DNA of 64,000 nt from positions 87,141 to 151,140 of the forward strand of contig WELA01003517.1 in the NCBI GenBank assembly GCA_009602735.1, in the 5' to 3' direction. The translations under genes were made by a program, and so were the position numbers. Of the stretch, positions 21,356-50,851 are shown piece by piece. Position 1 is the stretch's first letter. Each line of letters starts with the position of its first letter. Source of the DNA: Mesotaenium endlicherianum. Taxonomy: Eukaryota. The notes under the pieces are model-generated. The model saw only the letters and a program-made list of their open reading frames with translations. It ran no database searches and was not told the DNA's origin.

Positions 21356-21389
21356 GTGGTATCGGAGCAGTTATCACAGTCTTCTTTGT

Positions 21390-22868: not shown

Positions 22869-22957
22869 TCCAGTCTACTGACTGTGAGGATGCTAGAGAT
22901 AGTGAGTCGTCACTAGCTGCCCTCGTAGCAGGTATTATGGGTCCTGCTGAACTGGAT
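22844..22957 (+). promoter_or_regulatory. Putative -1 programmed ribosomal frameshift signal (gag to pol), family A
   Basis: Slippery heptamer T TTA AAA (22844-22850) in the gag frame, 7-nt spacer, 10-bp stem ACAGTCAGTA/TACTGACTGT. Pol lies in the -1 frame and is open from the heptamer. The same signal is at 29615 (A1) and 46049-46055 (A3, minus). Confidence 0.8.
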
Positions 22958-25900: not shown

Positions 25901-26720
25901 GAGAGCATATATTAACCAAAAACAAGATAATTGGGATGACCTGTTGCCTCAAATTCAGTTTGCGGTCAACAGTGCGGTGCACGCGTCAACGGGCAAGACT
26001 CCTTTTGAACTCAGCCTAGGTAGAGTCCCTAAGTCTCCTCTAGATGTGCTAGGGGAATCTTTAACTCGGCCTGAAGGGATTGACAACCTGGTCTCCCTCT
26101 AGTTAACTCAGGAGTTTGCTGACACCCTGTCAGAAGTCCAACGAAACTTGCACACGGCCCAAGAAAACCAACAAAAATACGCTAATCAACACCGTCGGGA
26201 ACTGACATTTTCCAAGGGGGATTTANGAAGGGCGATTTAGTCAAACTNNNNNNNNNNNNNNNNNNNNNATTTAGTCAAACTGCATTCTCAGCACCTGTAC
26301 CTCCCTGGTGTGGTCAAGAAAAAGCTTGGCCCTGTCTGGGTCGGTCCATATTCGGTGGTACGTCGTGTCGGTCAGAATGCTTACAAACTGAACATGTCAG
26401 CTGACTACAAGGGTCACCCGGTCTTTAATGTCTCCTTCTTGGAACCATACATCAAAGGTGATACACTGTTCACAGGGCGGTTACCTGTCCAATCGGGACC
26501 GGTCCCCGCTGTCCGACACGGCGATCCTGAGGAATATGAGGCCGAAGAGATTTTAGACGCTCGCTCGGTCCGTCGATCGTCTAAATATGTCATGAAGTAC
26601 CTCATCCGATGGAAGGGTTACGATGCCTCTGGGGACACTTGAGAATTTAATGGTCAGCTGATCAATGCCAAAGGGGCGTTGAAACGGTTCCACCTTTGGG
26701 CGGCTGGGGCACCTCCCTAA
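22844..26720 (+). pseudogene. pol: A2 pol (PR-RT-RH-IN-chromodomain) with premature stops and frameshifts
   Basis: [11 protein letters not shown] protease, [17 protein letters not shown] RNase H, ISMDWV/ISDRD/HPQTDGQ integrase, [17 protein letters not shown] chromodomain. Stops near 24479, 26100 and 26640. Confidence 0.92.
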
Positions 26721-27044
26721 CAGTCATTTCAGTTGACACGGGAAGGTGACAGGAGGTCCTGTCTCCATATAAGTTGGAGGGGGATGCGATAGTTAGTGAC
26801 AGTTGTGACAGGCAGCCCACCTTTAAATTTAAGTTGGAGAGAGTGGTATTCTCTGATCACCATATTACACACTCAACCTGCGCTCACACTCACTTGCTCT
26901 CCAACTCAATTTTCCCTTATATTCACTCACACCAGGTATTCCACACTAGGAACTCTTCCGATCGCGTTCCTCTTCATCAAGGGCACTCAGTAGCGGCAAA
27001 ATATCATGACTTCACTAACTGCATTGTGTTTATGATTGAGCAGG

Positions 27045-28736: not shown

Positions 28737-28821
28737 GGGCAGCAGGCTGGGGATAAGAGGGACAGCATGCTGTTATTAGTGTTAGTGTTGTTGAGGCGAC
28801 AACATGATAAGTTGGAGGGAT

Positions 28822-29543
28822 TGTAATGAATCAGTATACCGGTTGACATAATATTCATTTAAATAACATAGCTAAATAAGTTCAGCCTGCTGAACTCTAG
28901 TTAACAATCAGTCTGCTGGACTTTATACTTAATATCAGTTTAATGACTCAGGCCGGAAGTAGCAGGCTGAGGTCACCTTAAGTAAGCTTGCTGACACATT
29001 CTTTGACAGCCAGCTGACTTCCGTACTCGGTAGCAGCGAACTGCCTCGATATGCATCTAAGTGTGGTATGCTAGATGAATGGCCAGACGACATCCCTATG
29101 ATGGATGGCGATTTGGGATGATGGGAGATGGCGGTGGATTTGGTTAACCGAGGTCCTACCAACGTGGTTAACTCCCGGGTAGGCGGTGCCATCGCACTGA
29201 CCGTTGAACAATAAACTCATTCCATGTACATATGCTAGGCATTGCTCTCGAGTTCGGCATTCGGAAACGAGGCCAACTCTCTTGTACAGCTTACTGAGAG
29301 AGATCTGAATCCAAGGCGAGAAGCCATTGATATGCACTGTCTTCTAACCTTGCTTATGTATGAGTTTACTGATTGGCATTATTGATGCTAGTTTACTCGC
29401 ATTTGACTTACGAGTATTATTCACTGCTAGTGTGTTGTCCTTTGCCGTTAAACCAGTTAACGGAAAATACCATAAAGATTACTTGCTGATATAAAGATCT
29501 TTATTAATTGTTAATCGCCTATTTGGTAAGTCGATTCATTTCA
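28822..29543 (+). repeat. A2 3' LTR
   Basis: Follows the PPT and is followed by TSD CAGCA. Confidence 0.95.
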
Positions 29544-29548
29544 CAGCA

Positions 29549-32500
29549 GCTGGGTCACTACAAAAAGGAGTGTCCAATCAAGCACCTTCCAAAGGTCGAG
29601 AGAGAGGACCAGCCTTTAAAAGACAGCAACAGTCAGTAATCCAATCTACTGACTGTGAGGATGCTAGAGATAGTGAGTCGTCACTAGCTGCTCTCGTAGC
29701 AGGCATTATTGGTCCTGCTGAATTGGATTCACTATGCATGCTTGACAACCAGATAAAGGAGACCATCAGCAATATAGATCCCCAGAGAGTGCACTCTCTG
29801 GAGGATCTTGTACGACCTGATGTCCAACATTTCTTTGCTAAGTCGAGAGAACAATGCGAAAATCAGGAAAAGTCAGTCCCCCCTATTGTACTTCATTGCA
29901 TGATTGCAGGTAGGAAGGTGAGGGCATTTGTTGACGGAGAGGCGTCACATACTTTTATCCATAAGGACTTAGTTAAGCTGCTAAGGCTAACCACTGTCAC
30001 CCAAGGGAATAGACAAATATTCCTTGGAGATGCCTCAAGTATCCCGGGAGGAGTTATAACCAAGCCTATTGAGGTCCAGTTAGGTTCTGGCATTGCAGTT
30101 CTAACTGAAACGCTTACATTTGAGGTACTCAACACTGGCTTTTATGATCTCGTGCTGGGCAGGTCCTGGCTTAATAGACATCAAGCTGAAGTGTGTTGGA
30201 GCAGAGGTACAGTTAAAGTGAGAGGAGCCAGTGATGGGCAGACTGACTTGGCACCCACCAGTGCTCTTCCTCTTGTCCTGTGTGGATGGCAAATGAAGGA
30301 AAAGAAGAGGCTTCCAGAAGGATGCAAGTTGCTGAATGCAATGGAGTTCGTCAAAAGCTGGAACCAGAAGGAAGACAGAATGTTCTGTCTGCTGCTAAGA
30401 GAGGTACCTCCTCAACCCGAAGAAGTGGTTGAGAAAAAGGTGAGCCCTCCGGAGCACCCCACTGCTGCAGAAATGGTTGCTCAGTATAATGATGTTTTTT
30501 ATATGCCTCCAGGACTGCCCCCTAAGAGGGAAGTAGATCACAAGATTGATTCATTACCTGGGAGTCAGCCACCTTGGCAACGCACCTATGGCTTGTCTTA
30601 CGTGGATAGCGAAAAGTTAAAAACACAAATTGCAGAGTTGGAGGAAAATAGTCATATTTCCCCCAGTAAATAACCTTATGGCGCACCCATCCTATTTATT
30701 AAGAAAAAGGATGGAAGCATGCGGATGTGTGTGGATTACAGAGCTCTTAACAGAATTACAGTAAAGAACAAGTATGCTTTATCCAGAATCGAGGACTTGC
30801 TTGATACCCTGTCTCTTGCTAAAGTATTTAGTAAGATAGATCTCAAGATTGGTTATGATCAAATCAAAATTGCTGAGGGAGATCAACACAAGACTGCCTT
30901 CCGCACACGTTATGGACACTATGAGTTGAATGTGATGCCATTTGGACTGATTAATGCCCCTGCAAACTTCATGGGTGCTATAAATGACATTTTCAGGCCT
31001 TACTTGGATAAGTTTGTGCAAGTCTTCTTGGATGATATTTTAATTTTTTCTAAAGATGAAGCTCAGCATGCTGAGCACTTAAAGACAGTCATGGACACTG
31101 AGAAGAAATCAATTATATGCTAAAATGAGCAAGTGTGATTTCTTTTAGGAAAATATTGAATTCTTGGGCCACGTTGTCGGTAAGGAAGGCATCAGTGTGG
31201 ATCCTAAGAAAGTCCAGACCATAAGGGACTGGCTAGTACCACAGTCTGTCTCGGATGTTAGATCCTTTCTTCGGTTGGCTAACTATTACAGAAGATTCAT
31301 TGGAAACTATTCTACAAAGGCCAGCAAATTGACTGACCTTATTAAGAAAGACATAGAAATTGTGTGGGGAGAAGAGCAGCAAGCTGCCTTCCAGACTTTT
31401 AAAGATGCTCTTTATTCTGCCCCAATCTTAGCTGTGTATGACCCCAATAAACCTGTGGAGGTGGTTACTGATGCTTCAGACTTTGCCATGGGTGCTATTT
31501 TGTTGCAGCCTGCTGACAAAACCATACAGGATGGTAAGGTAAAGCAGGAGTGGCACCCTCTGCTGTATGAGTATGAATTTCAACTCAGCTGAAATTAACT
31601 ATTCCGTGCATGATGAAGAGCTGCTTTCTATCATTCATGTGCTCAAACAGTGGAGAGCATACTTATATGGTAAAGCTTTTAAGGTGATTACAGATCATTT
31701 AGCTCTGACTCACTTTCAGAAGAAGTCCAAGCTGTTGAGGAGGGAGAACCGCTGGAGCCAGATGCTGGAGCAGTTTCAAGTCCAGATTGACCCGCTGATG
31801 CACTCTTTAGAAGACCTGACTTGCAAGAAGGGAACTTTAGTCAGCATGCTGTAGATAAAGTCCATTGCGCACTCACTGCATTAAAGGTGAAAAAGTCCTT
31901 CCTCGAACAACTTAGGAAAGCCTATCTTTCTGACCCAACATGTGAGTCCAGCCCCACTGGTGGTGTGTGTCCTGCCACTGCACTCAAGTATAGGCTAAAG
32001 AGAGGGGTCTGGGTAACCGAAACCACTTCAGGCAGACTGAAACTGGTCATTCCCAATAACTTAGAAATAAGGTCACTCTTACTGAGTCAAGCACATGATA
32101 GTTTACTGGGTGGACATTTGGGGCAGGCCAAAAGTGTTGGCAAACTGGCAAAACAATATCACTGGGAGGGGTTACCTCGGGAGGTCTTGAAATATGTTAA
32201 GTCCTGTGATCAGTGTCAAAAGAATAAGTATAGGCACACACCAATTGGGGGGCTATTACAACCACTACCCAGCCCAGCTAGACGCTGGGAATCAATATCC
32301 ATGGACTGGGTGGTAACACTACCAAGAACCGCCAATGGGCATGACTCGATACTAGTAGTAGTGGATAAACTGACAAAAATGGTCATTTTCATCCCCACAA
32401 CTGTCAAAGTAACTGCCCTTTAAACTGCAAGATAGTTCTACAACCATGTAGTATGCCAACATGGGCTACTCTCTAATATTATCTCAGACAGAGACTCAAA

Positions 32501-33397
32501 ATTTACCTCTAAGTTCTGGAGAGCTTTAATGGGGTTAATGGGAGTCAAACAGCTGCTCAGCACAGCAAATCACCCTCAAATTGATGGGCAGACTGAACAA
32601 ACTAACCGGGTTTTGCAAGATTTGCTGAGAGCATATATTAACCAAAAACAGGATAATTGGGATGACCTGTTGCCTCAAATTCAGTTTGCGGTCAGCAGTG
32701 CGGTGCATGCGTCAACGAGAAAGACTCCTTATGAGCTCAGTCTGGGTAGAGTCCCTAAGTCTCCTTTAGATGTGCTAGGGGAGTCTTTAACTCATGCTGA
32801 GGGCATTGACAACCCAGTGTCTCTCCAGTTAACTTAGGAGTTTGCTGACACCTTGTCAGAAGTTCAACACAATCTGCACAAAGCCCAAGAAATTCAACAA
32901 AAATACGCTAATCAACACCGTCGAGAACGACATTTTCAAAGGGCGATTTGGTCAAACTGCATTCTCAACACCTGTACCTGCCTAGTGTGGTCAAGGAAAA
33001 GCTTGGTCTCGTCTGGGTCAGTCCATATTTGGTGGTGCGCCGTGTCGGTCAGAATGCTTACAAACTGAACATGTCAGTTGAATACAAGGGTCACCCAGTC
33101 TTTGATGTCTCCTTCCTGGAACCATACATCAAAGGTGACACACTGTTCACAGGTTGGTTACCCGTCCAACCGGGACCGGTCCCCGCTGTTAGGGATAGTG
33201 ACCCCGACGAATATGAGGTCGAGGAGATTTTAGACGCTCGCTCTGTCAGTCAATCATCTAAATATGTCATGAAGTACCTGGTCAGATGGAAGGGTTACGA
33301 TGCCTTTGGGGACACTCGGGAATTGAAGGACCATTTGACCAATGCCATAGGGGCGTTGAAACGGTTCCACCTTCGGGCGGCTGGGGCACCTCCATAA
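29549..33397 (+). pseudogene. pol: A1 gag end and pol (PR-RT-RH-IN-chromodomain), heavily disrupted
   Basis: Collinear with A3 pol, with many stops and frameshifts across ORF fragments 29570-33397. Confidence 0.92.
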
Positions 33398-33791
33398 CTG
33401 TCATTTCAGTTGACATGGGAAGGTGACAGGAGGTCCTGTCTCCATTTAAATTGGAGGGGAAATGTGCCAGTGAATGACAATTAGTGTGCGAGAAAGGGAC
33501 AGTTATTGACAGTAAAGTGTCAGCATGGTGACGGATGTGACAGCTAGAAATAAGCAAAGTTGGCGGAATAAGAAAAGGGACCAGCACATCAACAAATCAC
33601 TCAACTCACCCTGCACACAACATTCATCCGTTTATTCTTCATCGCACTACATTCTCGTTAACTCCTAGTAACCACCCTGTAAGGTAAACAAGAACATACC
33701 TGCCATCATAATACAAACTTACTTCTCTTCCTGCAACTCCTGTGACAAAGATTAAGATCCTACTAACTTGTGCCCTGGTTACATGTGCAGG

Positions 33792-35239
33792 ATGGCTCCC
33801 ACCACACAAAAGGAAGACAAAAAGCGCAAGGCAAAAGAAGCCAGGAGGACGATGGAGCAATACCGAAAAGAGTTGGCGGCGACGTCCCTCACCAGGAAAG
33901 AACAAGAAAGAGTTCGCAGACAACAAGAGGCGGCAGAAGAAGCACAGAGGAAGAAGGAGCAGGAGGCGGAAAATCTCAGGAAAGCTGAGGAGGAGAGACA
34001 GAAGAAACAACAAGAGGAAGCGGCGGCAGCAGAGGAGGAGAGAAGGTTGAAGCTGAGAAGCAGAAGAGCCTGGCCACTTACAGATATACTGTGGTGGGTA
34101 GCCAAATCTTTGATAACCTGAAGGGAGCATTGCTGGCAGCCCAGGAGATCAACAAGGTGGAACAAAAAACGATGTTACAGAGGCAAGGAGCAGAAGTCCT
34201 GGACAGGTATATTGAAACACACACTGGTGTGGTCCTCTACAAAGATTATGCCAAAATGGTGGGGTATACAGCAGAGCAGGCACGTTTTCTTGCAGATGAC
34301 TCGGAGGATAAGCCGGTACCAGTGGTTGGCATAGTAGGGAATCAGAGACTCATCGGGATGGTCAACATGCCGCCGGATAGCTTCAAGGATGCAATATTCT
34401 ACCTGACACTACTGCCAGCCTACAATGAAGTTGAGAGGAGGAGCTGGGAGTACTTGGCCAGGGAAACAGGACAGCAGATGTTCTCTCCCTACTAGTTCCC
34501 TTGTAAGCTGAAAAAGGTTGAGCATGGGCCATAGTATTACCAGCAGCCCACAGACTGGAGGTGGATGACCGTCACTAACAGGAAGCAGCAGTGTGATTGG
34601 GTCCACCCAGATGACTTCCATTATGGGCTGGACGGCTACCTCATCCTACCACCTCACATTGCCCCTTGGGACCCCAGGCTGAATGGATGCCTGAGTAATA
34701 TGAATGCTGAGACCAAGGAGCACAGGAGGAGGGGGAGAGACTATTTCTCTAAGGGGAAGCATGCCTTTGTCAAATGGGCGAAGAATGCAAGCCGGGTAGT
34801 TATCAGCAGGCTGAAGGCCAAGCAACCTCCAACTCGTCCTAAGAAAGGGCGGTCAGTAGATTTCTTCATGTCTACCCGGGAGCAGAATGACTTAGTGGAC
34901 GAGGCCCCTACTCGCTCTGAGGAGGAAGATGAGGAGGATGAGGAAGAAGAACAGGGTGGGGCAGAAGCATCAGGATCTGGTACTCAGGAGACCCAAAGGC
35001 AGGCAAAACAGGGACTCCTAGGGCGCCAAGATCAGGTGTATGGAATGTGATCCCTACTGTAGAGGCAACAGGACCCCGCCCTCGTTCTCCCAGCCCACCT
35101 GCCCAAGCAGGGAAAGAAGCTGATTTGACTGTTCTTGGCAGCAGAGAAAGGCTGAAATTCCCAGAGGACAGGGGTACCAGAAGAGGGACACGCGAAGTAG
35201 CCAGAGAAATGCTGGCCACCCCCTTCAGTCAGGGACATG
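33792..35239 (+). pseudogene. A1 accessory ORF3 (type I), disrupted; 3' end continues at 49816-49905
   Basis: MAPTTQKED... closely similar to A3 ORF3. Interrupted by element B. The tail RRPADRPRGLSRSRSRS resumes after 49815. Confidence 0.85.
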
Positions 35240-35600
35240 CATCGACATTACTAGAATATTCTACCTTAGACGCGCTAGGCTAAACCGAAACTTCTAGGTA
35301 AATCGACCTAGTCGGCACTCCGCGTCAGCCAAACTTACGTGAAGGTTCGAGTTCATTCTAACGGGCCAGATCGCTCGACGCTGTCGGTCAATCCGACAGT
35401 TGCGCTCACCGCGAATTAAGGACAGTTGTCAACCGACCTCAAAATTAATTAAACTTCGGAAATCTGTAACTCTCTTAATACTTGACCAAATTTGATGAAC
35501 TTTATATCAAAATGACCAAAACAATGCACTCTATACTATTATACAAAAAAACCACTTTCTTGAAACTCAAAAATGCACTTTATAAACCTATGACCTTACA
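35235..35600 (-). repeat. Family B 3' LTR, truncated
   Basis: Matches ~49448-49815 only; the rest is deleted. Confidence 0.88.
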
Positions 35601-38600
35601 TCATCCCCCTCCTCAAGATGCGACGTCCTCGACGCATTCTGCAGATAACGTCTCAACTTACTCTTACAATGGGTCAAGTTGGCCTCTGGCTCCCAAGTGT
35701 TGTTGTCCGCATGGTAGCCTTTCCACTTGACCAGATACTCTTGGACAAATCGCTGACCTCGTTTGACTCGTCGATCGCCGACAATCACCTCCACTTCATA
35801 CTCCAATACATCATCGATCTCGACCGGTGGTGGCGGTGTAGGTAGTCGCCCTGGATGTCCTTCATTCGGGTCAACGTATGGCCGCAGACAATTGACATGG
35901 AACACAACATGGATACGCCAGCCTGAAGGAAGTTCCAACTTGTAGGCCACTGGATTCACCTGCTTGAGCACTACAAAGGGACCTGTGAACCGTGCCCGCA
36001 GTTTCCTCTTGCCTGTGAAAGGTAGGTTCTCTGTGGACAAGAGTACTTTGTCGCCCACATGGAATGTCACTTCCCTCCTGTGCTTGTTAGCATGCTTGAC
36101 GTGCTCTTCCTATGCCTTCCGAATACACGTCTTTGCCATATGCCAAGTGTTGGCCATCTGCTCCATAAAAGCTTGTGTAGTAGGAACCTGAGTCTCCTTG
36201 GCCTTCTCCAACAAGATGTTCCCTGGATGATATACTTCTCGCCCATAAACCATAGCGAATGGTGACTGCTTGGTGGATCCCTGCATGCTGTTGTTGTAGG
36301 CAAACTCCAATCCTGGCAGCTTCTTGTCCCACTCTGAAGGGTCCTCCATAGTGAAACTCCTGAGCACCTCTTGCAGAGTTCTGTTGAGCCTCTCACTCTG
36401 CCCGTCTGTCTTAGGGTGATAGGAAGTGCTCATACTCAACTTGGTCCCTATCAAAGTAAACAATGACCGCCAAAAGTTGCTAGTAAACCTTGGATCCCGA
36501 TCTGAAACAATCACCTTTGGCAACCCATGTCGCCTGAATATATGATCAAAGAATAGCCGTGCCACATCCGCTGCCGTAGAAGTCTCCTTCATGGGAATGA
36601 AGTGAGCCATCTTGCTGAGCCTATCAGACACAACCCATACTGCATCGTGCCCTTGACCACTGCCTAGTAACGATGTGATGAAGTCCATAGCAATCTGCTC
36701 CCAAGGATACTCTGGAATAGGCAGGGGCTGCAATGTACCTCCCTTCTTTTGATTTGGTGTCTTGTTTCTCTGGCACGCATCACAACTCCTGATCCACTCC
36801 TCGATGTCCTTGTCCATTTTTCTCCAATAGTACACTCGCTTCAGCACGCTTGCCGTCTTCTCGCTTCCAAAGTGTCCAGCATATAAGCAATCATGATGCT
36901 CCGCAAGTAGTAAGTCTCGTAGCTCCTTGATGTCAAGTACCACCACTCTCTTGGAATCACCATAATACCATATGCCGTCCTCCTTCTGCATACTTGAGTT
37001 GGACTCAGCTGCTCCACCATCAGCAAACTCGGGGTCCTCCTCATAACCTCTTTAAAGCTTCTCCTTGAAGTCCATACTCTCCTTGATGACCGAGAAAGCT
37101 GCAAGGTCACACCTTCTGGATAAGGCATCTGTAGGGTTGATCTTCCCAGATAAATACTCAATCTTGTGGTCGAATTGTTGCAGAAACTCCATCCACCTTG
37201 CCTGTCTTGGTGTCAACGTTGGTTGCGTCATAAACTTCTCCAAGCTCTTGTGGTCGGTCTTGATGAACACCTTCCGGCCGTCCACATAACATCGCCAAAT
37301 CCTCAAAGCCTGGATAATAGCCAACATCTCTCGCTCGTGTGCTGCATAGTTCTGCTCCGCAGGACTCAACTTTCTGCTCTCATATGCCACAGGCTGCAAT
37401 CCTTTGCCTTGGTCCTGGAGAAGAAAAGCTCCCACTGCAAAATTTGATGCGTCCGTGATGATGGTGAAAGGAAGCTCTGGACTGGCAATTGCCAACACAG
37501 GTGCTTGTGTCAACAGCTCCTTAATCTTCTCGAAGGCTTGCTGCTCCTTGTCACCCCATAGCCACTTCTCCTGCTTCTTCAACATGTCCGTGAGCGGTGC
37601 ACACACCTTGGCAAATCCTTCAATGAAACGTCGGTAATAATTCGCCATGCCGAGGAAACTCCTGAGTTGATGAATATCAGCAGGTACCGGCCAATCTCTG
37701 ACTGCTTGCACCTTCTTCTGCTCCACCTTGACTCCTTCAGCTCCCACTATGTGTCCAAGAAACTCGACCTCCTTGAGACAGAAGTCGCACTTGCTCATCT
37801 TCCCATACAGCTTTTGATCTCTCAAGACCTCCAACACCTTCCTCAGATGCCCCACATGCTCCTCCAAGGTCTTCGAATAGATCAGGATGTCGTCCAAAAA
37901 TACCACCACAAACTGGTCCAAGTAGGGTCTGAAGATACTATTCTTGAGTCCCATGAATGTAGCAGGTGCATTAGTCAATCCAATAGGCATGACTGTGAAC
38001 TCAAACAAACCATAGCGAGTTCTGAAAGCAGTCTTCTGAACGTCTCCTTCCGCAATCCGTACCTGGTGATAGCCACTCCTCAAATCGATCTTCGAGAAAT
38101 ACTTCGCCCCGACAAGCCTGTCAATCAACTCGTCCACTCGTGGAAGTGGGTACCTGTTCTTGATAGTGACCTTGTTGAGTGCCCGGTAGTCAACACACAT
38201 CCTCATAGTCCCATCCTTCTTCTTCACAAATAAGACTGGCGCTGCAAATGGAGACTCGCTGGGTCGGATGAATCCCTTCTCCAATAACTCTGTCAGCTGC
38301 TTCTTCAACTCATCCAACTCTGCAAACGATTGTCGATAGGCGGATCTCACTGGTGGCTTGCTCCCCTGGTTCCAACTCGATCTTGTGCTCCATAGCTCTC
38401 TGTGGAGGTAATCCTGTAGGTAGCTCCTCAGGAAATATGTTCTTGAACTCCTCCAACAGCGCCTTAATTTGGGCAGGCATCTCAGCAAGCTTCTTCTCTT
38501 GAGCAGTTGGGCTCTGCTCCTTCTGAGCAAGGGGATCAGACACCACTACTTGCTCCTCCGGCGATGTACATTCGCCGAGGCTGTTAGGATTCACGCTTGC

Positions 38601-39230
38601 TCCATCTGATGACCTGGCCAGAGCCACCGAAACAAGGTACATCTCCTTCACCTGATTCGCCCTGCATAGCTTCTTAACTTGCAGGCTCGACAGAAGACAG
38701 TTACTTGTGGTCGTATCTACCTCCACCTGTTTCGCTGTCTCCATTCGACCATCACGCCCTTGGACCTTCACTTGTCCTGTACTCCAGTGCACTTGAGNTG
38801 TACTCCAGTGCAATTGAGGGTTGGCTTTTCTTAGCCATGGTCGGCCCAATATCACCTCATGGTGACCTAACTCTGCCTGCTCCATAACTTCAGTACTCCG
38901 GTGCCTCGCTACTTCCACGTGAATAGCTTCCGTAGGTGCACCACAATTGAGTCTCTGCCCATTCGCCAAAATTGCCTTCTTAGGCTCATAATGCTTTTGC
39001 ACAGGGATTCGCCACTCTTTCACCAGCTTCTTGTGCACAAAGTTTGCATTTGCGCCACTGTCGACCATACACTTCGCCTTGTTGCCGTCGACCACTCCTT
39101 CCACGATGATAGGCTTGTCAACATCTCGTCCTACGCTTCTCGGCAGGCTCCTGGGGATAACCTCCTTGTGAGTTCTCGTCTTCACGCCAGTAGACACCCC
39201 AGAACAACTTACTGGCGTCCTCCTTTTTCC
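35588..39230 (-). pseudogene. pol: Family B pol (PR-RT-RH-IN-chromodomain), frameshifted
   Basis: [43 protein letters not shown], chromodomain EYEVEVIV..YLVKWKGY..NTWEPEANL. The stop lies just inside the 3' LTR. Confidence 0.92.
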
Positions 39231-39468
39231 TGCTGTTGAGGTTGCTTTGCCTTCACATAACAGTCTCGAGCCATATGTCCAAGCTTGCCGCAATTATAGC
39301 AGGGTCCTCTCGGCTTAAAATTCTGCTGCCTGCGTTGGTACTGCACAAGTCCCAACTCCATAGGTACAGGACCTTGAACACTCGTGCTTGGCGCTTGAGA
39401 TCCAAAGGGTCGATAACCTCCAAAGTTGTGGCTGCCCCACTGCCTCTGACTATACTCCACAGCGTCGA

Positions 39469-40188
39469 TGAAATGAATCGACTTACCAAATAGGCGATTA
39501 ACAATTAATAAAGATCTTTATATCAGCAAGTAATCTTTATGGTACTTTCCGTTAACTGTTTAATGGCAAAAGGACAACGCACTAGCAGTGAATAATACTC
39601 GTCAGTCAAATGAGAGTAAACTAGCATCAATAATGCAAATCAGTAAACTCATACATAAGCAAGGTTAGAAGACAGTGCGTATCAATGGCTTCTCGCCTTG
39701 GATTCAGATCTCTCTCAGTAAGCTGTACAAGAGAGTTGGCCTCGTTTCCGAATGCCGAACTCGAGAGCAATGCCTAGCATATGTACATGGAATGAGTTTA
39801 CTGTTCAACGGTCAGTGCGATGGCACCGCCTACCCGGGAGTTAACCACGTTGGTAGGACCTCGGTTAACCAAATCCACCGCCATCTCCCATCATCCCGAA
39901 TAGCCATCCATCATAGGGATGTCATCTGGCTATTCATCTAGCATATCGCACTTAGATGCATATCAAGGCAGTTCGCTGCTACCGAGTACGGAAGTCAGCT
40001 GGCTGTCAAAGAATGTGTCAGCAAGCTGACTTAAGTTGACTTCAGCCTGCTGCTTTCGGCTGAGTCATTAAACTGATAATTATGTAAAGTCCAGCAGACT
40101 GACTATTAACTAAAGTTCAGCAGGCTGAACTTAATTAACTATTATATTTAAATGAATATTATATCCACTAATATACTGATTCATTACA
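39469..40188 (-). repeat. A3 3' LTR
   Basis: Adjacent to the PPT; matches 47544-48263 with scattered substitutions. Confidence 0.95.
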
Positions 40189-40301
40189 ATCCCTCCAACT
40201 TAACTTGTTGTCGCCTCGACAACATTAAACTGCAGAAATTTTAAATAAGGGAACTGAACCTGACCAGCCTCCCTTACTGACTGCCTCTTCAGCGTGTCAC
40301 C

Positions 40302-41978
40302 TTAAGGGGTTGTTCCTGGGGCTTCAGGGTCAGGAGACGGAGATCTGGACCTAGATCTGGACAGCCCTCTAGGTCTGTCAGCTGGCCTTCTAAAGAACCC
40401 TGTTTGCTCTAAAGTTGGCCCTCGAGGAGAACGGAGGATGGTGGCCTGCTCTTCAACCACTTGGGTGTTGATTCCCACATAGACAGGCATTCCAGTAGGA
40501 TGCTGAAATACATTGGCTAGAGGTACATGCCCCTGAGCGGAGGGGGAGGCTGGCATACCTCTGGCCCACCCGCGTGTCCCTCTTCTGGCACCCCTGTCCT
40601 CTGGGGATTTCTGTCTGTGTCTGCTGCCCAGTACAGTCAGATCAGCTTCTTCCCCTGCTTGGGCAGGTGGGCTGGGGGAGCGAGCGCGGGGTCCAGTTGT
40701 CGCCATAACGGGGATCACATTCCAAACACCTGATCGTGGTTCTTTAGGAAGCGCCCCTGCCTGTCCCTGGGTATCCTGAGTACCTGCTGCTGATGCTTCT
40801 CCTCTGCCTTGTTCTTCTTCCTCATCCTCCTCATCCTCCTCCTCGGAGAGAGTAGGGGTCTCGTCCACTAAGTCGTCCTGCTCCCTAGTAGACATGGAGT
40901 AGTCTACCGACCTCCCTTTCTTAGGGCGCGCTGGAGGTTGCTTGGCCTTCAGCCTACTGATATCTATCCGGCCTGCATTCTTTGCCCATTTGACAAAGGC
41001 ATGCTTTCCCTTAGAGAAGTACTCTCTTCCCCTCCTCCTATGTTCCTTGGTCTCTGCATTCATATTGCTCAGGCATCCATTCAGCCTGGGGTCCCAAGGG
41101 GCAATGTGAGGTGGTAGGATGAGATAGCCGTCTAGGCCATAGTGGAAGTCATCCGGTTGGGCTCGGTCACACTCCTGCTTCTTATTTGTGACGGTCATCC
41201 ACCTCCAGTCTGTTGGCTGCTGGTAGTACTGGGGTCCGTGCTCAGCCTTCCTCAGTTTACACGGGAACCAGTGGGGAGAGAACATCTGCTGTCCTGCTTC
41301 CCTGGCCAAGTACTCCCAGCTCCTTCTCTCAACTTCATTGTAAGCTGGCAGGAGTGTGAGGTAGAATACCGTATCCTTAAAGCTATCGGGCCGCATGCTC
41401 ACCATCCGGATGAGTCTCTGATCTCCCACTATTCCCGGTATGGGGACCGGCTTGTCCTCTGAATCATCTGCGAGATACCGGGCCTGCTCTGCTGTATAGC
41501 CCACCATCTTAGCATAATCTTCGTAAAGGACCACGCCGGTGTGTGTCTCGATGTACCTGTCCAGTGCTGTAGCTCCTTCCTTCTGTAGCAGTGTTGTCTG
41601 TTCCAGCCTGTTGATCTCCTGGGCTGCCAGCAATGCTTCCTTCAGGTTATCGAAGTTTTGGCCACCCACCACAGTATACCTGTAAGTGGCCAAGCTCTTC
41701 TGTCTGTCCGCTTCAATCTTTTTTCTTTTCTCCTCTTCTGCCGCTGCCGCTTCTTCTTGCTGTTTCTTCTGTCTCTCCTCCTCAGCCTTCCTGAGGTTTT
41801 CCGCTTCCTGATCCTTCTTCCTCTGTGCCTCTTCTGCCGCCTCTTGTTGTTTGCGGACCCTTTCTTGTTCTCTCCTGGTGAGGGACGTCGCCGCCAGCTC
41901 CTTCTGGTATTGCTCCATTGTCCTCCTGGCTTCTTCTGCCTTGCGCTTTCTGTCCTCCTTTTGTGTGGTGGGCGCCAT
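40302..41978 (-). CDS. A3 accessory ORF3 (type I), 558 aa, unknown function
   Basis: Uninterrupted ORF with the ATG directly after a splice acceptor. N-terminal charged coiled-coil-like region, aromatic-rich conserved core, acidic tract, Ser/Pro/Arg-rich tail. No obvious transmembrane segment. Confidence 0.85.
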   Translation of the reverse strand: MAPTTQKEDRKRKAEEARRTMEQYQKELAATSLTRREQERVRKQQEAAEEAQRKKDQEAENLRKAEEERQKKQQEEAAAAEEEKRKKIEADRQKSLATYRYTVVGGQNFDNLKEALLAAQEINRLEQTTLLQKEGATALDRYIETHTGVVLYEDYAKMVGYTAEQARYLADDSEDKPVPIPGIVGDQRLIRMVSMRPDSFKDTVFYLTLLPAYNEVERRSWEYLAREAGQQMFSPHWFPCKLRKAEHGPQYYQQPTDWRWMTVTNKKQECDRAQPDDFHYGLDGYLILPPHIAPWDPRLNGCLSNMNAETKEHRRRGREYFSKGKHAFVKWAKNAGRIDISRLKAKQPPARPKKGRSVDYSMSTREQDDLVDETPTLSEEEDEEDEEEEQGRGEASAAGTQDTQGQAGALPKEPRSGVWNVIPVMATTGPRARSPSPPAQAGEEADLTVLGSRHRQKSPEDRGARRGTRGWARGMPASPSAQGHVPLANVFQHPTGMPVYVGINTQVVEEQATILRSPRGPTLEQTGFFRRPADRPRGLSRSRSRSPSPDPEAPGTTP

Positions 41979-42245
41979 CCTGCACATGTAACCAGGGCAC
42001 AAGTTAGTAGGATATGGACCTTTGTCATAGGGATTGCAGGAAGTATGTTAGTATTTAGTATAGTGGCTTCGCTGCTGTTTACCTTACAGGATGATTGCTA
42101 AAAGTTGACGTAGTTGCGATGCGCTACACATAAACGTATGAGTGTGTTTTTATCGCTCTCGCTCACTAACTGTCATATATTTTCCCCTCCAACTTAAATG
42201 GAGACAGGACCGCCTGTCACCTTCCCGTGTCAACTGAAATGACAG

Positions 42246-45200
42246 TTATGGAGGGACTCCAGCGGCCCGAAGGTGGAACCGTGTCAACGCCCCTTTGGCA
42301 TTGGTCAAGTGGTCCTTAAACTCCCAAGTGTCCCCAGAGGCATCGTAACCCTTCCATCGAATGAGGTATTTCATGACATATTTAGACGATCGACGGACCG
42401 AGCGAGCGTCTAAAATCTCATCGACCTCATATTCCTCAGGGTCGCCGTCCCGGACAGCGGGGACCGGTCCCGGTTGGACAGGGAACCGACCTGTGAACAG
42501 TGTATCACCTTTGATGTACGGTTCCAGGAAGGAGACATTAAAGACCGGGTGCCCCTTGTATTCAGCTGACATGTTCAGTTTGTAAGCATTCTGACCGACA
42601 CGACGGACCACCGAATATGGACCGACCCAGACAGGGCCAAGCTTTTTCTTGACCACACCAGGGAGGTACAGGTGCTGAGAATGCAGTTTGACTAAATCCC
42701 CCTTGGAAAATGTCAGTTCCCGACGGTGTTGATTAGCGTATTTTTGTTGGTTTTCTTGGGCCGTGTGCAAGTTTCGTTGGACTTCTGACAGGGTGTCAGC
42801 AAACTCCTGAGTTAACTGGAGGGAGACCGGGTTGTCAATCCCTTCAGGGTGAGTTAAAGATTCCCCTAGCACATCTAGAGGAGACTTAGGGACTCTACCC
42901 AGGCTGAGTTCAAAAGGAGTTTTGCCCGTTGACGCGTGCACCGCACTGTTGACCGCAAACTGAATTTGAGGCAACAGGTCATCCCAATTATCTTGTTTTT
43001 GGTTAATATATGCTCTCAGCACCTCCTGCAGAACTCGGTTAGTTCTTTCAGTCTGCCCATCAGTCTGAGGGTGGTTTGCTGTGCTGAGCAGCTGTTTGAC
43101 TCCCATTAACCCCATTAAAGCTCTCCAGAACTTAGAGGTGAATTTTGAGTCTCTGTCTGAGATGATATTAGAAGGGAGCCCATGTTGGCATACTACATGG
43201 TTGTAAAACTGTCTCGCTGTTTCGAGTGCAGTCACTTTGACAGTTGTGGGGATAAAAATGACCATTTTTGTCAGTTTATCCACGACTACCAGTATTGAAT
43301 CATGCCCGTTGGCAGTTCTTGGTAGTGAGACCACCCAGTCCATGGATATAGTTTCCCAGCGTCCCGCTGGGATGGGTAGCGGTTGCAAGAGACCTCCGGG
43401 TGGTGTGTGCCGAGACTTATTTCTCTGACACTGGTCACAGGACTTGACATATTTCAAGACCTCCCGGGGTAACCCCTCCCAATGATAATGTTTTGCCAGT
43501 TTGCCAACAGTTTTGGCCTGCCCCAAATGTCCACCCAGGAGACTGTCATGAGCTTGACTCAGTAAGAGAGACCTTATTTCCAAGTTATTAGGAATGACCA
43601 GCTTCAGCCTGCCTGAAGTGGTTTCAGTCACCCAGACCCCTCCCTTGAGCTTATACCCGAGTGCAGTAGCACGACACACACCAGTAGTGGGGCTGGGCTC
43701 AAATGTTGGGTCAGAAAGGTAGGCTTTCCTAAGTTGTTCAAGGAAGGACTTTTTCACCTTTAGTGAAGTGAGTGCACACAGGACTTTATCTACAGCATGC
43801 TGACTAAAGTTCCTTTCTTGCAAGTCAGGTCTTCTAGAGAGTGCATCAGCAGGATTCAACTTCCCTGGTTTGTAGTCGATCTGGACTTGGAACTGCTCCA
43901 GCATCTGGCTCCAGCGGTTCTCCCTCCTCGACAGCTTGGACTTCTTCTGAAAGTGGGTCAGAGCTAGATGATCTGTAATCACCTTAAAAGCTTTACCATG
44001 TAAGTATGCTCTCCACTGTTTGAGTACATGAATGATAGCTAGCAGCTCTTTATCATGCACTGAGTAATTAATCTCCGCTGGATTAAATTTCATAGACTCA
44101 TACAACACAGGATGCCACTCCTGCCGTACCTTACCATCCTTTGTGGTTTTGTCAGCAGGCTGCAACAAAATAGCACCCATGGCAAAATCAGAGGCATCAG
44201 TAACCACCTGCACCGGTTTGCTGGGGTCATACACGGCTAGCACTGGGGCAGAACAAAGGGCATCTTTAAGGGTCTGGAAGGCAGCCTGCTGCTCTTCCCC
44301 CCACACATACCCGATGTCTTTCTTAGTAAGGTCAGTCAGTTTACTGGCCTTTGTGGAATAATTCTCAATAAATCTCCTATAGTAGTTAGCCAACCCGAGG
44401 AAGGATCTAACTTCAGAGACAGACTGTGGTACTGGCCAGTCCCTTATGGTCTGGACTTTCTTAGGATCCACACTGATGCCCTCTTTACTGACAACGTGGC
44501 CTAAGAATTCAATACTTTCCTTAAAGAAATCACACTTGCTCATTTTAGCATACAAGTGATTTTTCCGCAGAGTGTCCAGCACTTTCTTTAAGTGTTCAGT
44601 GTGCTGAGCTTCATCTTTAGAGAAAATTAAAATATCATCCAGGAAAACTTGCACAAACTTATCCAAATAAGGTCTGAAAATGTCATTCATAGCACCCATA
44701 AAGGTAGCAGGAGCATTAGTCAGTCCAAATGGCATCACGTTGAACTCATAGTGTCCATAACGTGTGCGGAAAGCAGTCTTGTGTTCATCCCCCTCAGCAA
44801 TTCTGATTTGATGATAACCACTCTTGAGATCTATCTTACTGAACACCTTAGCGCCAGACAGGGTATCAAGCAAGTCCTCGATTCTGGGTAAAGCATACTT
44901 GTTCTTTACTGTAATTCTGTTCAGGGCTCTGTAATCCACACACATCCGCATACTGCCATCCTTTTTCTTAACAAATAGGATAGGTGCGCCGTACGGTGAT
45001 TTACTGGGAGAAATGTAACCATTTTCCTCCAGCTCTGCAATCTGTGTTTTCAACTCCTCGCTCTCCAAATAAGACAAGCCATAAGTGCGTTGCCAGGGTG
45101 GCTGGCTACCAGGTAATAGATCAATCCTATGATCTACTTCCCTTTTAGGGGGTAGTCCTGGAGGCATGTTAAACACATCAGTGTACTGAGCAACAATTTT

Positions 45201-46055
45201 TGCAGCAGTAGGGTGCTCCGGAGGGCTTACCTTTTTCTCAACCACTTCTTCAGGTTGAGGAGGTACCTCTCTTAGCAGCAGACAGAACATTCTGTCTTCC
45301 TTCTGGTTCCAGCTTTTGACGAACTCCATTGCATTCAGCAACTTGCATCCTTCTGGAAGCCTCTTCTTTTCCTTCATTTGCCATCCACACAGGACAAGAG
45401 GAAGAGCACTGGTGGGTGCCAAGTCAGTCTGCCCATCACTGGCTCCTCTCACTTTAACTGTACCTCTGCTCCAACACACTTCAGCTTGATGTCTATTAAG
45501 CCAGGACCTGCCTAGCACGAGATCATAAAAGCCAGTGTTGAGTACCTCAAATGTAAGCGTTTCAGTTAGAACTGCAATGCCAGAACCTAACTGGACCTCA
45601 ATAGGCTTGGTTATAACTCCTCCCGGGATACTTGAGGCATCTCCAAGGAATATTTTTCTATTCCCTTGGGTGACAGTAGGCAGCCTTAGCCGCTTAACTA
45701 AGTCCTTGTGGATAAAAGTATGTGACGCCCCTCCGTCAACAAATGCCCTCACCTTCCTACCTGCAATCATGCAATGCAGTAGGATAGGGGGGACTGTCTT
45801 TTCCTGACTTTCGCATTGTTCTCCTGACGTAGCAAAGAAATGTTGGACATCAGGTGGAACAAGAGCATCCAGAGTGTGCACTCTCTGGACGTCTATATTA
45901 CTGATGGTCTCCTTTATCTGTTTGTCAGGCATGCATAGTGAATCCAGTTCAGCAGGACCCATAATACCTGCTACGAGGGCAGCTAGTGACGACTCACTAT
46001 CTCTAGCATCCTCACAGTCAGTAGACTGGATTACTGACTGTTGCTGTCTTTTAAA
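42246..46055 (-). CDS. pol: A3 Pol (PR-RT-RH-IN-chromodomain), intact, probably reached by -1 frameshift from gag
   Basis: 1238-aa ORF, open upstream to the slippery site at 46049-46055. Catalytic motifs and a chromodomain ([25 protein letters not shown]) are present. Confidence 0.95.
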
Positions 46056-47509
46056 GGCTGGTCTTTTCTCTCGACCTTAGGCAGGTGCTTGACCGGACAC
46101 TGTTCTCTGTAGTGGCCTTTCTGCTGACAATGGTAGCAAGTAGATTTTGCTGAGGCTGGTCTCGGCTTAGTCCTACCACCACCCCTTCCATAGCCACCTC
46201 GAGAGGGACCACCTCTACCTCTAGACTGAATAGCATTGTACTCATACTCATATTCATCACCCTGATTATCCTCAGCCTGGTCTCCTTCAACTGCATTGTA
46301 GGAACCGTGGGGCTTTTTGACAATCTTAGACACCAAAGCGTTACTCTGGCGCTTGTGATTGAACTGCTGCTGATCCCAGGCGTCAGCATCCTGGATCAAG
46401 TCAGCCAGTTTCTCATACTTTTTCTCAGCAAAATGACCAGAGACCTCGGATTTCAAGCCATACCTGAAGTATGCTATCCTATACCGTTCTGGCAAATCAG
46501 GCTGCTTCATCATGTTCTCTTGGAACTTTTGAGCAAACTCAGCAACTGAAGTGGTCTGCTTCAGTGTCAGGGAGATCATCGCATAGATAGCTTTCTCCTG
46601 CTGGTTGATGACATCAAACTTCTCATGCAACTTCTCGACAAACTCTACCCACGTAGGGTCACCGAGTTGCCGAGCCTTACGCTCTTCCTTCCAGTAAAGC
46701 CACCAGTCTGCGGCACTGCCTTTCAGTAGCGCACCGGTGTGCCTGACCTTCTCGTAATCTTGCAGTTCTGGGTAGTTCTCCAGCCACTGCTCAACATCCG
46801 CGAGAAACTTGATCAGGTAATATTTTCTGTTTCCCTCAGGATCATAGTCCTGGGGAGGTTTCGGCTTGGGCTTACTAGGCCCTCGGCCACCACCACTAGT
46901 GGTGTGAGACCCCAGTTGGTCTCTGTCCCGGAGTAGGGACATTATGATTCTTTTGTCCTCCTGCTGGGACTGATACATGGTCGCCATTTGCGACTGCATC
47001 TGAACGAACAATGCTCCCAAGTCTACATTTTGGGGTGGTAGATTAGCAAATGCAGCAGCAGCATTGGCATCTACTCGCTGAGTAGTGTCCTCAACAATCC
47101 CTCTTGCTCCTGCAGCAGCAATTCCTGCCGCATTCAGCCGGTCACGTATTTGACCTAGGGGTACATTGAGTTGTACGGCAGGAGGTGGGTTCAGAACATT
47201 GGCCCTTGATGCCATAAGTTCTTCAACAGTGCGCTCGTCAGCTGGCTGTCCTTCCCTCCTTTGTATATCTTCAGCGGCCTTTGCTACTTGTTCAGCTTCT
47301 AGTCTGGCTATCTCCTCCTCAGCTTGCTGAGCTGCGACTGAGGCAATAGCAGCTGCCTCATCTGCAGCCTCCCTAGCTGCAGTATCCGCTACTGCTTCCG
47401 AATAGGTACGGTTTCCCGCTACATGGCTTTCCGCCTGGTTTTCGACATTCTCGTTATCCTGGTTCTCCATGTCTCGGGAGTTGCTAGTTTGAGACCTTGT
47501 CCTTACCAT
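46031..47509 (-). CDS. gag: A3 Gag (492 aa)
   Basis: Nearly identical to A2 Gag; CCHC knuckle present. Confidence 0.94.
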
Positions 47510-47543
47510 ACAAAGAAGACTGTGATAACTGCTCCGATACCAC

Positions 47544-48263
47544 TGAAATGAATCGACTTACCAAATAGGCGATTAACAATTAATAAAGATCTTTATATCA
47601 GCAAGTAATCTTTATGGTATTTTCCGTTAACTGGTTAAACGGCAAAGGACAACACACTAGCAGTGAATAATACTCGTAAGTCAAATGCGAGTAAACTAGC
47701 ATCAATAATGCAAATCAGTAAACTCATACATAAGCAAGGTTAGAAGACAGTGCGTATCAATGGCTTCTCGCCTTGGATTCAGATCTCTCTCAGTAAGCTG
47801 TACAAGAGAGTTGGCCTCGTTTCCGAATGCCGAACTCGAGAGCAATGCCTAGCATATGTACATGGAATGAGTTTACTGTTCAACGGTCAGTGCGATGGCA
47901 CCGCCTACCCGGGAGTTAACCACGTTGGTAGGACCTCGGTTAACCAAATCCACCGCCATCTCCCATCATCCCGAATAGCCATCCATCATGGGGATGTCAT
48001 CTGGCCATTCATCTAGCAGGTCGTACTTAGATGCATATCAAGGCAGTTCGCTGCTACCGAGCACGGAAGTCAGCTGGCTGTCAAAGAATGTGTCAACAAG
48101 CTGACTTAAGTTGACTTCAGCCTGCTGCTTTCGGCCGAGTCATTGAACTGATAATTATGTAAAGTCCAGCAGACTGATTATTAACTAAAGTTCAGCAGGC
48201 TGAACTTAATTAACAATTAGATTTAAATGAATATTATATCCACTAATATACTGATTCATTACA
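47544..48263 (-). repeat. A3 5' LTR
   Basis: Adjacent to PBS TGGTATCGGAGC on the minus strand. Confidence 0.95.
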
Positions 48264-49071
48264 GTCGACCCTTGTTGCCAATGCCATCATTTCTCCAAGA
48301 CTGGTAGGGTCCTTCAGCGCCACTTCCTTGGCCACAGTTGGCTTGAGTCCCCTCTTGAACTTGTCCATCATCTCCGACTCGTGCATGGATGGACATTGAA
48401 GCACCAGCTCGTTGAAGCGCGATACATACTCCTCTATGCTTCCTCGTTGACGAAGGCGCACCAATAGATTTCGTGCGGTAGCCTCGGGTGCAATAGGTTG
48501 AAATTGCCTCTTCAAGCAGAGCTGATCAACAGTAGCAGGAATTCCAGACAGCTGCTCCTCTCGTTCATACCAAGCTCCAGCACTCTTCTGCAACAAAGTT
48601 ATGACAAAGGCGACTTGCCTGTCGGGCGTGAGCGCAGAATACTCCATAAACTTCTTCACTCCAAAAATCTATTGATGAACAGGCGGCGATCCACGCTCTC
48701 CAGTGTACACTTCAGGCTTAGGCACACGCACTCTCGATGCGGGTGGAATAACTGGTTGCACCACTGGGTTAACATGAATTGGTGGTACAACGGGTGCAGG
48801 TGCCGAATTCGTCGAAGCAGCATTCCCAATAACAACTCGCACCATTCTCTCCACTTCCGCGCGCATATTTTGTTGGAATGGGGCGTAGACTTCTCCTCCA
48901 ATTGCATTCGCCATTTGCCTTAGCATCGCCTGCATCTCCTGTTGCTCTCTAGTCATTGTTGGTGCTGCCTGCTGCCCCGCGCGCTCGACATGCTCGACAT
49001 GTTCGCCTCCTCCAGCTGCCGGCTGCGACTCCATAATATAATATGCAAACTAGCCCAGCTCTGATACCAAA

Positions 49072-49815
49072 TGAAAGGGGCAGAGTGCCCTAGTGGAAGC
49101 GTAGTGACTCACGAGGAACAAAGCTAGCTGCAATCATACTCAAGAGTGCAGCGGCATATTGCTAAGAAAGCTTAGGAAAATTATTTGACATTTTGAGTGG
49201 CAAGAAACTGCTCACAAATGATGAAGGATGAAAGGTCTTGTCATTACAAACCCGTAGAAATTTACAGAAGTGAAAACTGATAAGAAACAAAGAAGTTATG
49301 CCTATTTATAATTTTCTGCCTAAATGCTCCTCTCTAGAAGGAAGCTACGGATTTTCCCAAGTGTTCGTCAAATCGTCCCTTTCAGAATATTCGTGAGTAA
49401 GCCAGATCAGTCTAATCTGACGTGGCGGGCCAAATTGACGTCCACCTACATGCCTCGACATTACTAGAATATTCTATCTTAGACGCGCTAGGCTAAACCG
49501 AAACTTCTAGGTAAATCGACCTAGTCGGCACTCCGCGTCAGCCGAACTTACGTGAAGGTTCGAGTTCATTCTAACGGGCCAGATCGCTCGACGTTGTCGG
49601 TTAATTCGACGGTCGCGCTCACCGCGAATTAAGGACAGTCGTCAACCGACCTCAAAACTAATTAAATTTTGAAAATCCGTAACTCTCTGAATACTTGACC
49701 AAATTCGATGAACTTTATATCAAAATGACCAAAAAAATGCACTCTATACTATTATATAAACAAAACACACTTCCATGAAACTCAAAAATGCACTTTATAA
49801 ACCTATGACCTTACA
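49072..49815 (-). repeat. Family B 5' LTR (~744 bp)
   Basis: TGTAAGG...TTTCA on the minus strand, followed by the PBS. Confidence 0.9.
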
Positions 49816-50137
49816 AGAAGGCCAGCTGACAGACCTCGAGGGTTGTCCAGATCTAGGTCCAGATCTCAGTCCCCTGATCCTGGAGCCCTAGGAACAACCC
49901 CCTAAACATCAAAACTATCCTCCAGTCAAGCCTTGCTGGAGGTCTCTCTGTTTGCACCCCACAACGGAAGTGGACTGAGGGTGGAGGTGACAATTCACCG
50001 TCATTAGTGATCCCCACAGCTAGGCAACAGTGTTGAAGCAAGAGGCAGGCGGTGGAGGGGTAGTTCTGTTAGTTCCCTGACCAGATAATTTTATAGTTTA
50101 ATGATGTCGAGGCGACAACAATTTAAGTTGGAGGGAT

Positions 50138-50851
50138 TGTAATGAATCAGTATATTGGTAGATATAATACTCATTTATAGTAGTTAATTAAGTTCAGCTT
50201 GCTGAACTATAGTTAACATTCAGTCTGCTTGACTTTATATAATTATCAGTTAAATGACTCAGCCGAGAGCAGCAGGCTGAAGTCAATTTAGGTCAGCTTG
50301 CTAACACATTCTTTGACAGCCAGCTGACTTCCGTACTCGGTGGCAGCGAACTGCCTAGATATGCATCTAAGTGTGATATGCTAGATGAATGACCAAATGA
50401 CATGCTTGGGATGGATGGCGATTTGGGATGATGGGAGACGGCGGTGGATTTGGTTAATCGAGGTCCTACCAACGTGCTTAACTCCCGGGTAGGCGGTGCC
50501 ATCGCACTTGCCGTTGAACAGTAAACTCATTCCATGTACATAGGCTAAACATTGCTCTCGAGTTCGGCATTCGAAAACAAGGCCAACTTTCTTGTACTGC
50601 TTACTGGGAGATATCTGAATCCAAGGCGAGAAGCCATTGATACGCATTGTCTTCTAGCTTTGCTTATGTATGAGTTTACTGATTGCATTATTGATGCGAG
50701 TTTACTTGCATTTGACTTGCGAGTATTGTCCACTGCTAGTGTGTTGTCTTTTGCTGATTAATCAGTTAACAGAAAATACCATAAAGATTACTTGCTGATA
50801 TAAAGATCTTCATTAATTGTTAATCGCTTATTGGTAAGTTGATTCATTTTA
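50138..50851 (+). repeat. A1 3' LTR
   Basis: Follows the PPT; terminal CA mutated to TA; followed by TSD TCCAC. Confidence 0.93.

Follow-up and report, generated by a model that had tools for sequence, protein, structure and literature searches.

Plant Ty3/gypsy elements commonly carry extra open reading frames (ORFs) behind pol, of heterogeneous kinds (PMC6317226), plant LTR elements are generally without introns, and most extra ORFs are without known expression or function (PMC12786077, PMC7264820); for these and all later citations, our statements extend to the passages of each source that were available. The window analysed here, a 64,000-nt stretch of Mesotaenium endlicherianum DNA, brings the two subjects together: three retroelement copies (A1, A2 and A3) carry an intron-like stretch of about 105 nt that ends 1 nt before the start codon of an extra reading frame, ORF3. 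How is ORF3 expressed, and how is such an intron kept through reverse transcription? A sequence-only reading of the window had proposed a separate spliced mRNA under regulated splicing, reminiscent of complex retroviruses. We favour an ORF3 message from an internal promoter, with a 5′-UTR intron of ~105 nt that is likely spliced out just before the start codon, a reading that we hold with evenly divided confidence. The read evidence comes from five of nine raw RNA runs, 6–24% of each being searched, and two contig sets; the RNA runs are from a related strain or species, whose organism has 54–57% of sampled words in common with the source of the window.

A nest of chromoviruses with an exchanged block behind pol

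The elements form a nest (Table 1). A1 contains A2 inside its gag and chromovirus B inside its ORF3, and A3 sits inside B. Each A element has its own target-site duplication, hence A1, A2 and A3 are three independent insertions, each from reverse transcription. A tandem map that included a shared LTR and gave A1 no gag was dropped, given that the target-site duplications show nesting. The A3 pol order of protease, RT, RNase H and integrase with a C-terminal chromodomain, together with paired LTRs, a primer-binding site (presumably of the initiator-Met tRNA type), a terminal polypurine tract and a 5-bp target-site duplication, identifies a Ty3/gypsy chromovirus. Relatives of its RT–RNase H region at near-full coverage come from plants and algae, with up to ~62% identity among the 120 matches listed. 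A3 pol overlaps the end of gag in the −1 frame across a TTTAAAA heptamer (46031–46076), by its sequence a likely ribosomal frameshift site; an intron between gag and pol was rejected in favour of this overlap.

Table 1 Coordinates of the elements and their parts within the window.
Feature	Position	Strand	Properties or evidence
Element A3	48263-39469	-	intact; LTRs 97.0% identical; target-site duplication TCGAC
Element A2	20635..29543	+	complete, nested in A1 gag; LTRs 97.1% identical; target-site duplication CAGCA
Element A1	18338..50851	+	oldest copy; LTRs 93.0% identical; target-site duplication TCCAC
Chromovirus B	35235-49815		without ORF3; 3′ LTR truncated; related element
A3 5′ LTR	47544..48263	-	TG..CA; 97.0% identical to 3′ LTR
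A3 primer-binding site	47530..47542	-	presumed initiator-Met tRNA type
A3 gag, 492 aa	46031..47509	-	Pfam Ty3_capsid, Retrotrans_gag, zf-CCHC
A3 pol frame (protease, RT, RNase H, integrase, chromodomain)	42246..46076	-	Pfam
A3 post-pol non-coding block	42185..42245	-	TGACA repeats, hairpin, internal polypurine tract
A3 leader, 102 nt	42083..42184	-	putative internal promoter and first exon (predicted function)
A3 putative intron, 103 nt	41980..42082	-	AAG/GTAAAC to TGCAG, G, then ATG at 41978
A3 ORF3, 558 aa	40302..41978	-	only intact ORF3 copy
A3 terminal hairpin and polypurine tract	40189..40228	-	fold and motif
A3 3′ LTR	39469..40188	-	97.0% identical to 5′ LTR
A2 post-pol block and leader	26722..26935	+	internal polypurine tract 26770; tract-like motif 26829; G-poor, CA-rich
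A2 putative intron, 108 nt	26936..27043	+	CAG/GTATTC to AGCAG, G, then ATG at 27045
A2 ORF3, divergent type	27045..28736	+	one internal stop and one N
A1 post-pol block and 224-nt leader	33399..33683	+	internal polypurine tract 33446
A1 putative intron, 107 nt	33684..33790	+	AAG/GTAAAC to TGCAG, G, then ATG at 33792
A1 ORF3 5′ part	33792..35234	+	frame changes, stops; interrupted by B; 3′ end resumes 49816-49905

Other features surround the nest. A Ty1/copia element (15382–18342 and 51289–54393; LTRs 15382–15820 and 53956–54393, 94% identical) encloses all of it between its LTRs, so the nest sits in one copia copy. Part of the B LTR (35593–35637) is a short high-copy fragment, very abundant in contig set X7 and in the RNA runs. 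Positions 1176–7280 hold a ~3.1-kb near-perfect tandem duplication of GC-rich coding sequence; an N (4314) lies close to its junction, and the duplication may be an assembly artefact. A host Hsp70-family gene of the Hsp110 type, with spliceosomal introns, occupies 55552–62016, and one of its introns apparently starts with GC (60860).

Directly after the pol stop, A1, A2 and A3 have a block of ~60 nt that is 93–95% identical among them, the last 300 nt of pol being 87–91% identical. The block folds with z scores of −2.5 (A3), −1.5 and −3.2 in the three copies and ends in a hairpin and polypurine tract resembling the one before the 3′ LTR. In element B, pol runs straight into hairpin, tract and LTR with no ORF3. 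Hence, the internal tract of the A elements marks the ancestral end, and the leader, intron and ORF3 would have been added behind it. Between A2 and A3, identity is 93–100% over gag and pol (92% in the final bin of pol), 56–64% from the internal to the terminal tract and 92–97% in the 3′ LTR. With the drop confined between the two tracts, the block has been exchanged as a unit. This shows modularity and not a dedicated swapping mechanism, because conserved ends are where breakpoints would be placed anyway. An assembly error is not the source of the A2 junction, given that a contig from another run spans 26619–27107 with 25 differences and no gap at a depth of 55. The A2 leader also has a second polypurine-tract-like motif (26829–26845), and in a variant contig from X7, 26389 is followed, across a tract-like insert, directly by an A1-type leader.

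Between the pol stop and the donor, TGACA occurs at 19–25 per kb, compared with 3.5 per kb for positions 14001–63400, and the counts in the three copies were reached by 2, 1 and 39 of 5000 shuffles, for a motif noticed after the fact. We take these TGACA(G) motifs to resemble TALE-homeodomain sites.

Selection on ORF3 and on both ends of its putative intron

The A3 ORF3 product has a charged helical N-terminus, a conserved core (approximately residues 93–350), an acidic stretch and a Pro/Ser/Arg-rich tail. Two very divergent ORF3 types have been swapped on one element backbone: those of A2 and A3 have 40% amino acid identity, with 120 of 247 aligned core residues identical, and in the core dN is 0.41 and dS is 3.6 (synonymously saturated). 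Judged by these rates, ORF3 is a real gene under purifying selection. It lies on the pol strand, not antisense as in the gene23 type of Grande, and lacks a transmembrane stretch (highest 19-residue hydropathy 0.73), which sets it apart from env-like proteins. Basic clusters and RS/SP repeats, together with the acidic stretch and the missing transmembrane stretch, indicate that ORF3 is probably a nuclear regulatory protein and not an envelope protein. Our guess would be that it aids export of unspliced genomic RNA or counters silencing. No Pfam family matched ORF3 at cut-off, and no homologue was found among 3592 candidates or among 7989 longer ones. Pattern matches were confirmed in 0 of 588 and 0 of 275 cases in metagenome contigs and in 0 of 25 cases in viral contigs (0 of 2 for an integrase query). 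Among solved structures there was no match, the best ESM Atlas score of 0.81 was at chance level, and two AlphaFold models were unusable (mean pLDDT 34 and 38). Provisionally, ORF3 is therefore an orphan in the databases searched.

Re-reading the sequence confirmed the three intron-like stretches at the positions originally given, with donor, branch, acceptor and G-ATG as described. All copies have AG/GTA, then ACTAAC, then YAG/G-ATG ahead of a sense ORF3, with 29, 29 and 30 nt from the start of ACTAAC to the intron end. The stretches thus show the sequence features of a major-class spliceosomal intron: a GT donor, a branch 20–35 nt from the end, a YAG and conserved ends. The pattern ACTAAC-N15-30-YAG-N-ATG has exactly 3 matches in the 64-kb window, all at these sites, compared with a mean of 0.25 in 100 shuffles, of which 0/100 reached 3; this pattern, like the combined donor, branch and acceptor pattern treated below, was defined after the sites had been seen. 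Each intron contains 1–2 ATGs. No notable RNA fold is found in the introns (z +1.0 and +0.7), and Rfam gave no match over 41900–42400.

The A2 intron does share little with those of A1 and A3, as had been claimed: there are 58 identical positions and weak global similarity, and alignment scores are 41 and 37, where shuffles average 21 and 22 (s.d. ~7.5). Two further claims need narrowing. AG/GTA is conserved in all three copies, but the exact 5′ splice site is ambiguous in A1 and A3, in which a second donor, CCT/GTAAGG, lies 5 nt upstream, is closer to consensus and would make the A3 intron 108 nt long. Likewise, the signals are present in all three copies, but A1 and A3 are homologous there, so the conservation represents two independent lineages. 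A local AG/GTA at the kept distance in A2 has a probability of ~1% by chance.

Could these stretches be something other than introns? The conserved bases might be promoter, initiation or RNA-binding signals, with ORF3 translated from an internal message that is not spliced; its translation in A1 and A3 could then begin at an in-frame ATG 9 nt upstream of the ORF3 start. ACTAAC is present at other places in and near these elements too, no junction is listed here in the five low-coverage RNA runs, and as introns the stretches would be atypical for the host. Six of seven Hsp110 introns picked by eye (one with a wrong donor was excluded) are 255–472 nt long; degenerate branch motifs occur in five and ACTAAC in none, so those six exceed the element intron in length and have weaker branch sites. 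However, donor, branch and acceptor co-occur at kept spacing in both lineages, a combination found once in 200,000 base shuffles of the A2 region, and an unspliced A2 message would be hampered by its last ATG in the stretch, 13 nt upstream of the ORF3 ATG and out of frame. We regard this explanation as decidedly unlikely.

A1 and A3 are identical over the last 34 nt of the intron and over 15 nt around the donor, whereas the remainder of the intron is ~70% identical and its middle drifts; 70 of 103 four-fold sites in ORF3 are identical. The chance of a 34-nt identical run is between 2e-6 and 6e-3, set by the neutral rate chosen. The first 222 nt of ORF3 are more alike than the core (19/22 four-fold sites match), and taking this rate as neutral gives p ~0.006 instead of 2e-6; a recombined tract may account for some of the 34-nt identity. 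Between A2 and A3, synonymous sites of ORF3 are saturated, so that unconstrained DNA would by now be randomised, yet the donor, branch and acceptor persist, as do the length and the distance to the ATG. From these comparisons both intron ends look constrained and the middle free, which is the profile of a working intron with selected signals.

Proposed expression of ORF3 and retention of the putative intron

This conservation supports a selected intron and an ORF3 message of its own, as the sequence-only reading had it, but none of the junctions listed in the five RNA runs, at low coverage, ends at 41979, 33791 or 27044. The splice would also not produce the message by itself: removal of ~105 nt leaves gag and pol in front, so an internal start or an upstream splice is needed as well.

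Mean read depth was 0, 0 and ~2 over the A3-type intron and <0.5 over the A1-type intron. The bin with the A2-type intron (26900–27214) reached 5.7 (X16), 20.8 (X14) and 3.0 (X11), with no junction listed. The A2-type reads are strongly one-stranded in two stranded libraries and antisense under the usual library convention. If antisense, they are uninformative on splicing; if sense, they represent unspliced RNA and argue against efficient splicing there. One-stranded reads cover the integrase end, the internal tract and the A2-type intron (42082–43571 in A3, 26270–27214 in A2) and have fixed differences common to three studies, hence they probably derive from one expressed copy. Within pol, a CT..AC joint of 204 nt (31508–31713) was supported by 9 reads in X14 and was absent from X7 contigs; it is likely an intron on the strand opposite to the element. 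It shows that short splices are detectable at a depth of 10–20 and that opposite-strand transcription and splicing occur in some copies. The halves of the LTRs (39469–40188 and 47544–48263) have reads of opposite strands meeting near the middle, which by strand convention is either a two-way promoter or a two-way terminator.

The favoured internal promoter would place the ORF3 transcription start in the 100–220-nt leader, and the host major spliceosome would remove the ~105-nt intron, with its upstream ATGs, before the ORF3 ATG. Plant 5′ UTRs are G-poor and CA-rich, and in A1 and A2 the last 80 nt before the donor are CA-rich and free of ATG, with 7 and 4 G, which favours an internal promoter with a 5′-UTR intron. 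The A3 leader fits less well: it is the shortest, with 15/80 G, and two ATGs lie upstream of its donor, at 94 and 49 nt. The three leaders have no convincing TATA box in common.

Alternatively, transcription could start in the 5′ LTR, and a donor at the LTR end could be joined to the ORF3 acceptor, directly or via a small post-pol exon, the short intron being a final step or by-product only. This is the known route of Athila ORF2 and Bagy-2 in the available text of PMC7197481 and PMC7264820. GGTAAGT is present in 6/6 LTR copies (TTG/GTAAGT in the last 20 nt of the A3 5′ LTR, GT at 47561), TTTCAG just behind the pol stop is a possible small-exon acceptor, and the branch and acceptor side is the most strongly conserved. 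However, the local AG/GTA at equal distance in both lineages would then need a second step; a long LTR splice would not need a local donor, and its conservation favours a short local intron. The LTR donor lies ~30 nt past a TATA-like TATAAAG and leaves almost no first exon (with the start site assumed from the motif), whereas splicing from the donor behind the gag ATG would leave this ATG and ORF3 in different frames. Among the joints listed from the five low-coverage RNA runs, none links the LTR to ORF3. We consider a start in the LTR somewhat unlikely.

Whichever way the message starts, the packaged RNA must keep the intron, as originally argued: it is retained in all three copies and in contigs from other runs. 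DNA-like contigs run uninterrupted through the A3-type (X1, 41609–42255) and A2-type (X7) introns; among the contigs, which drop rare variants, none with a precise loss of the intron is listed. One X7 contig (depth 6.75) is without likeness over 33619–33708, which includes the A1 donor. Together with the favoured internal promoter, we propose passive purging. Genomic RNA spliced at this site would have a junction ~160–290 nt behind the pol stop and would be subject to nonsense-mediated decay, plant introns more than 50 nt after a stop being triggers of decay according to passages of PMC3711448; with the junction beyond that distance, passive purging of spliced genomic RNA is possible. Mainly unspliced RNA would then be packaged, and the intron would survive retrotransposition. 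A separate packaged RNA pool, as described for BARE in part of PMC3735527, is another route to retention.

The regulated splicing proposed earlier is thus not required, given that the intron would also be kept if spliced genomic RNA decayed or if daughter copies without it were selected against. On the regulated reading, an element-encoded factor, maybe ORF3 itself acting like Rev or CERV, would block splicing of the genomic RNA or export it unspliced, and this control would be what keeps the intron. The basic clusters and RS/SP repeats of an ORF3 without a transmembrane stretch, the structured and highly conserved block behind the pol stop and the precedent of CERV (PMC10309623, as far as available) are consistent with such a factor, which could be an added layer on an internal promoter. 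On the other hand, the searches gave no homology or fold evidence for ORF3, passive purging would do, and a perfect branch site would argue against a deliberately weak intron. We think regulated retention very unlikely. The comparison with complex retroviruses stands as a fair analogy, but ORF3 is without env features.

A broader reading, unlikely in our judgement, would make the whole a self-contained sense module of promoter, leader exon, optimal intron and orphan nuclear protein between two working polypurine tracts, traded among families as a cassette. The intron would act as a quality filter via nonsense-mediated decay, with no Rev-like control, and TGACA(G) could tie expression to a TALE-homeodomain zygote-stage programme. 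Such a programme, if true, would explain the silence in ordinary RNA samples.

Known elements and significance

Spliced extra ORFs or extra ORFs with their own promoter are already known from Athila, Bagy-2, CERV and Grande. Athila ORF2 and the env-like gene of barley Bagy-2 are also sense 3′ extra ORFs of plant Ty3/gypsy elements and are spliced (PMC7264820, PMC7197481), and Athila4 and Calypso have an extra polypurine tract in the linker (PMC2829016, available portion). In contrast to Athila and Bagy-2, the element here is a chromovirus, its ORF3 lacks a transmembrane stretch, and a conserved local donor defines a putative short intron, whereas theirs is a pol-removing splice of full-length RNA. 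CERV of the Caenorhabditis elegans element Cer1 is, like ORF3, a non-env orphan of ~520–560 aa in the env slot; its message is spliced (PMC10309623), as is proposed here for ORF3, and by this analogy a Rev-like role of ORF3 is conceivable. However, CERV joins gag-frame exons to its 3′ ORF (PMC10309623, same passages), whereas ORF3 has its own ATG, 1 nt past the acceptor, in 3/3 copies, and a donor after the gag ATG would be out of frame.

The maize Grande gene23 is likewise an accessory gene between pol and LTR, and it has its own promoter and a nuclear protein (PMC7264820, as available), both of which are proposed here for ORF3. However, gene23 is antisense, so that any intron in it would stay in genomic RNA, whereas ORF3 and its putative intron are sense. 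For the env-like ORFs of Sireviruses, an internal promoter ahead of the ORF, in a region with repeated motifs, has been hypothesised, and multiple polypurine tracts and a hairpin at the tract occur; these are Ty1/copia elements, however, with most extra tracts after the ORF, and the available part of PMC2829016 describes no leader intron. Foamy viruses use a second internal sense promoter for accessory genes near the 3′ end (PMC7828637, in part), which in a vertebrate retrovirus is an analogy only. Ogre, EVADE and BARE1 are plant LTR elements that keep a sense intron and package unspliced RNA (PMC12786077, PMC3735527). Their introns lie in gag-pol and set the Gag:Pol ratio, whereas the present one belongs to the leader of an accessory gene behind pol, and gag and pol here appear, from their frames, to be linked by a −1 frameshift.

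Our literature search, of incomplete coverage and with published extra-ORF lists that could hold cases, found no chromovirus in which a leader intron precedes a sense extra ORF. New here, as far as that search extends, is the combination of a chromovirus, a two-tract sense module and a short leader intron that has stayed conserved despite synonymous saturation. The short leader intron gives exact predictions for the junction and the 5′ end of the message, which separate an internal promoter from a start in the LTR. The ORF3 intron can also serve as a clear-cut test case for how introns persist in retroelements that pass through reverse transcription.
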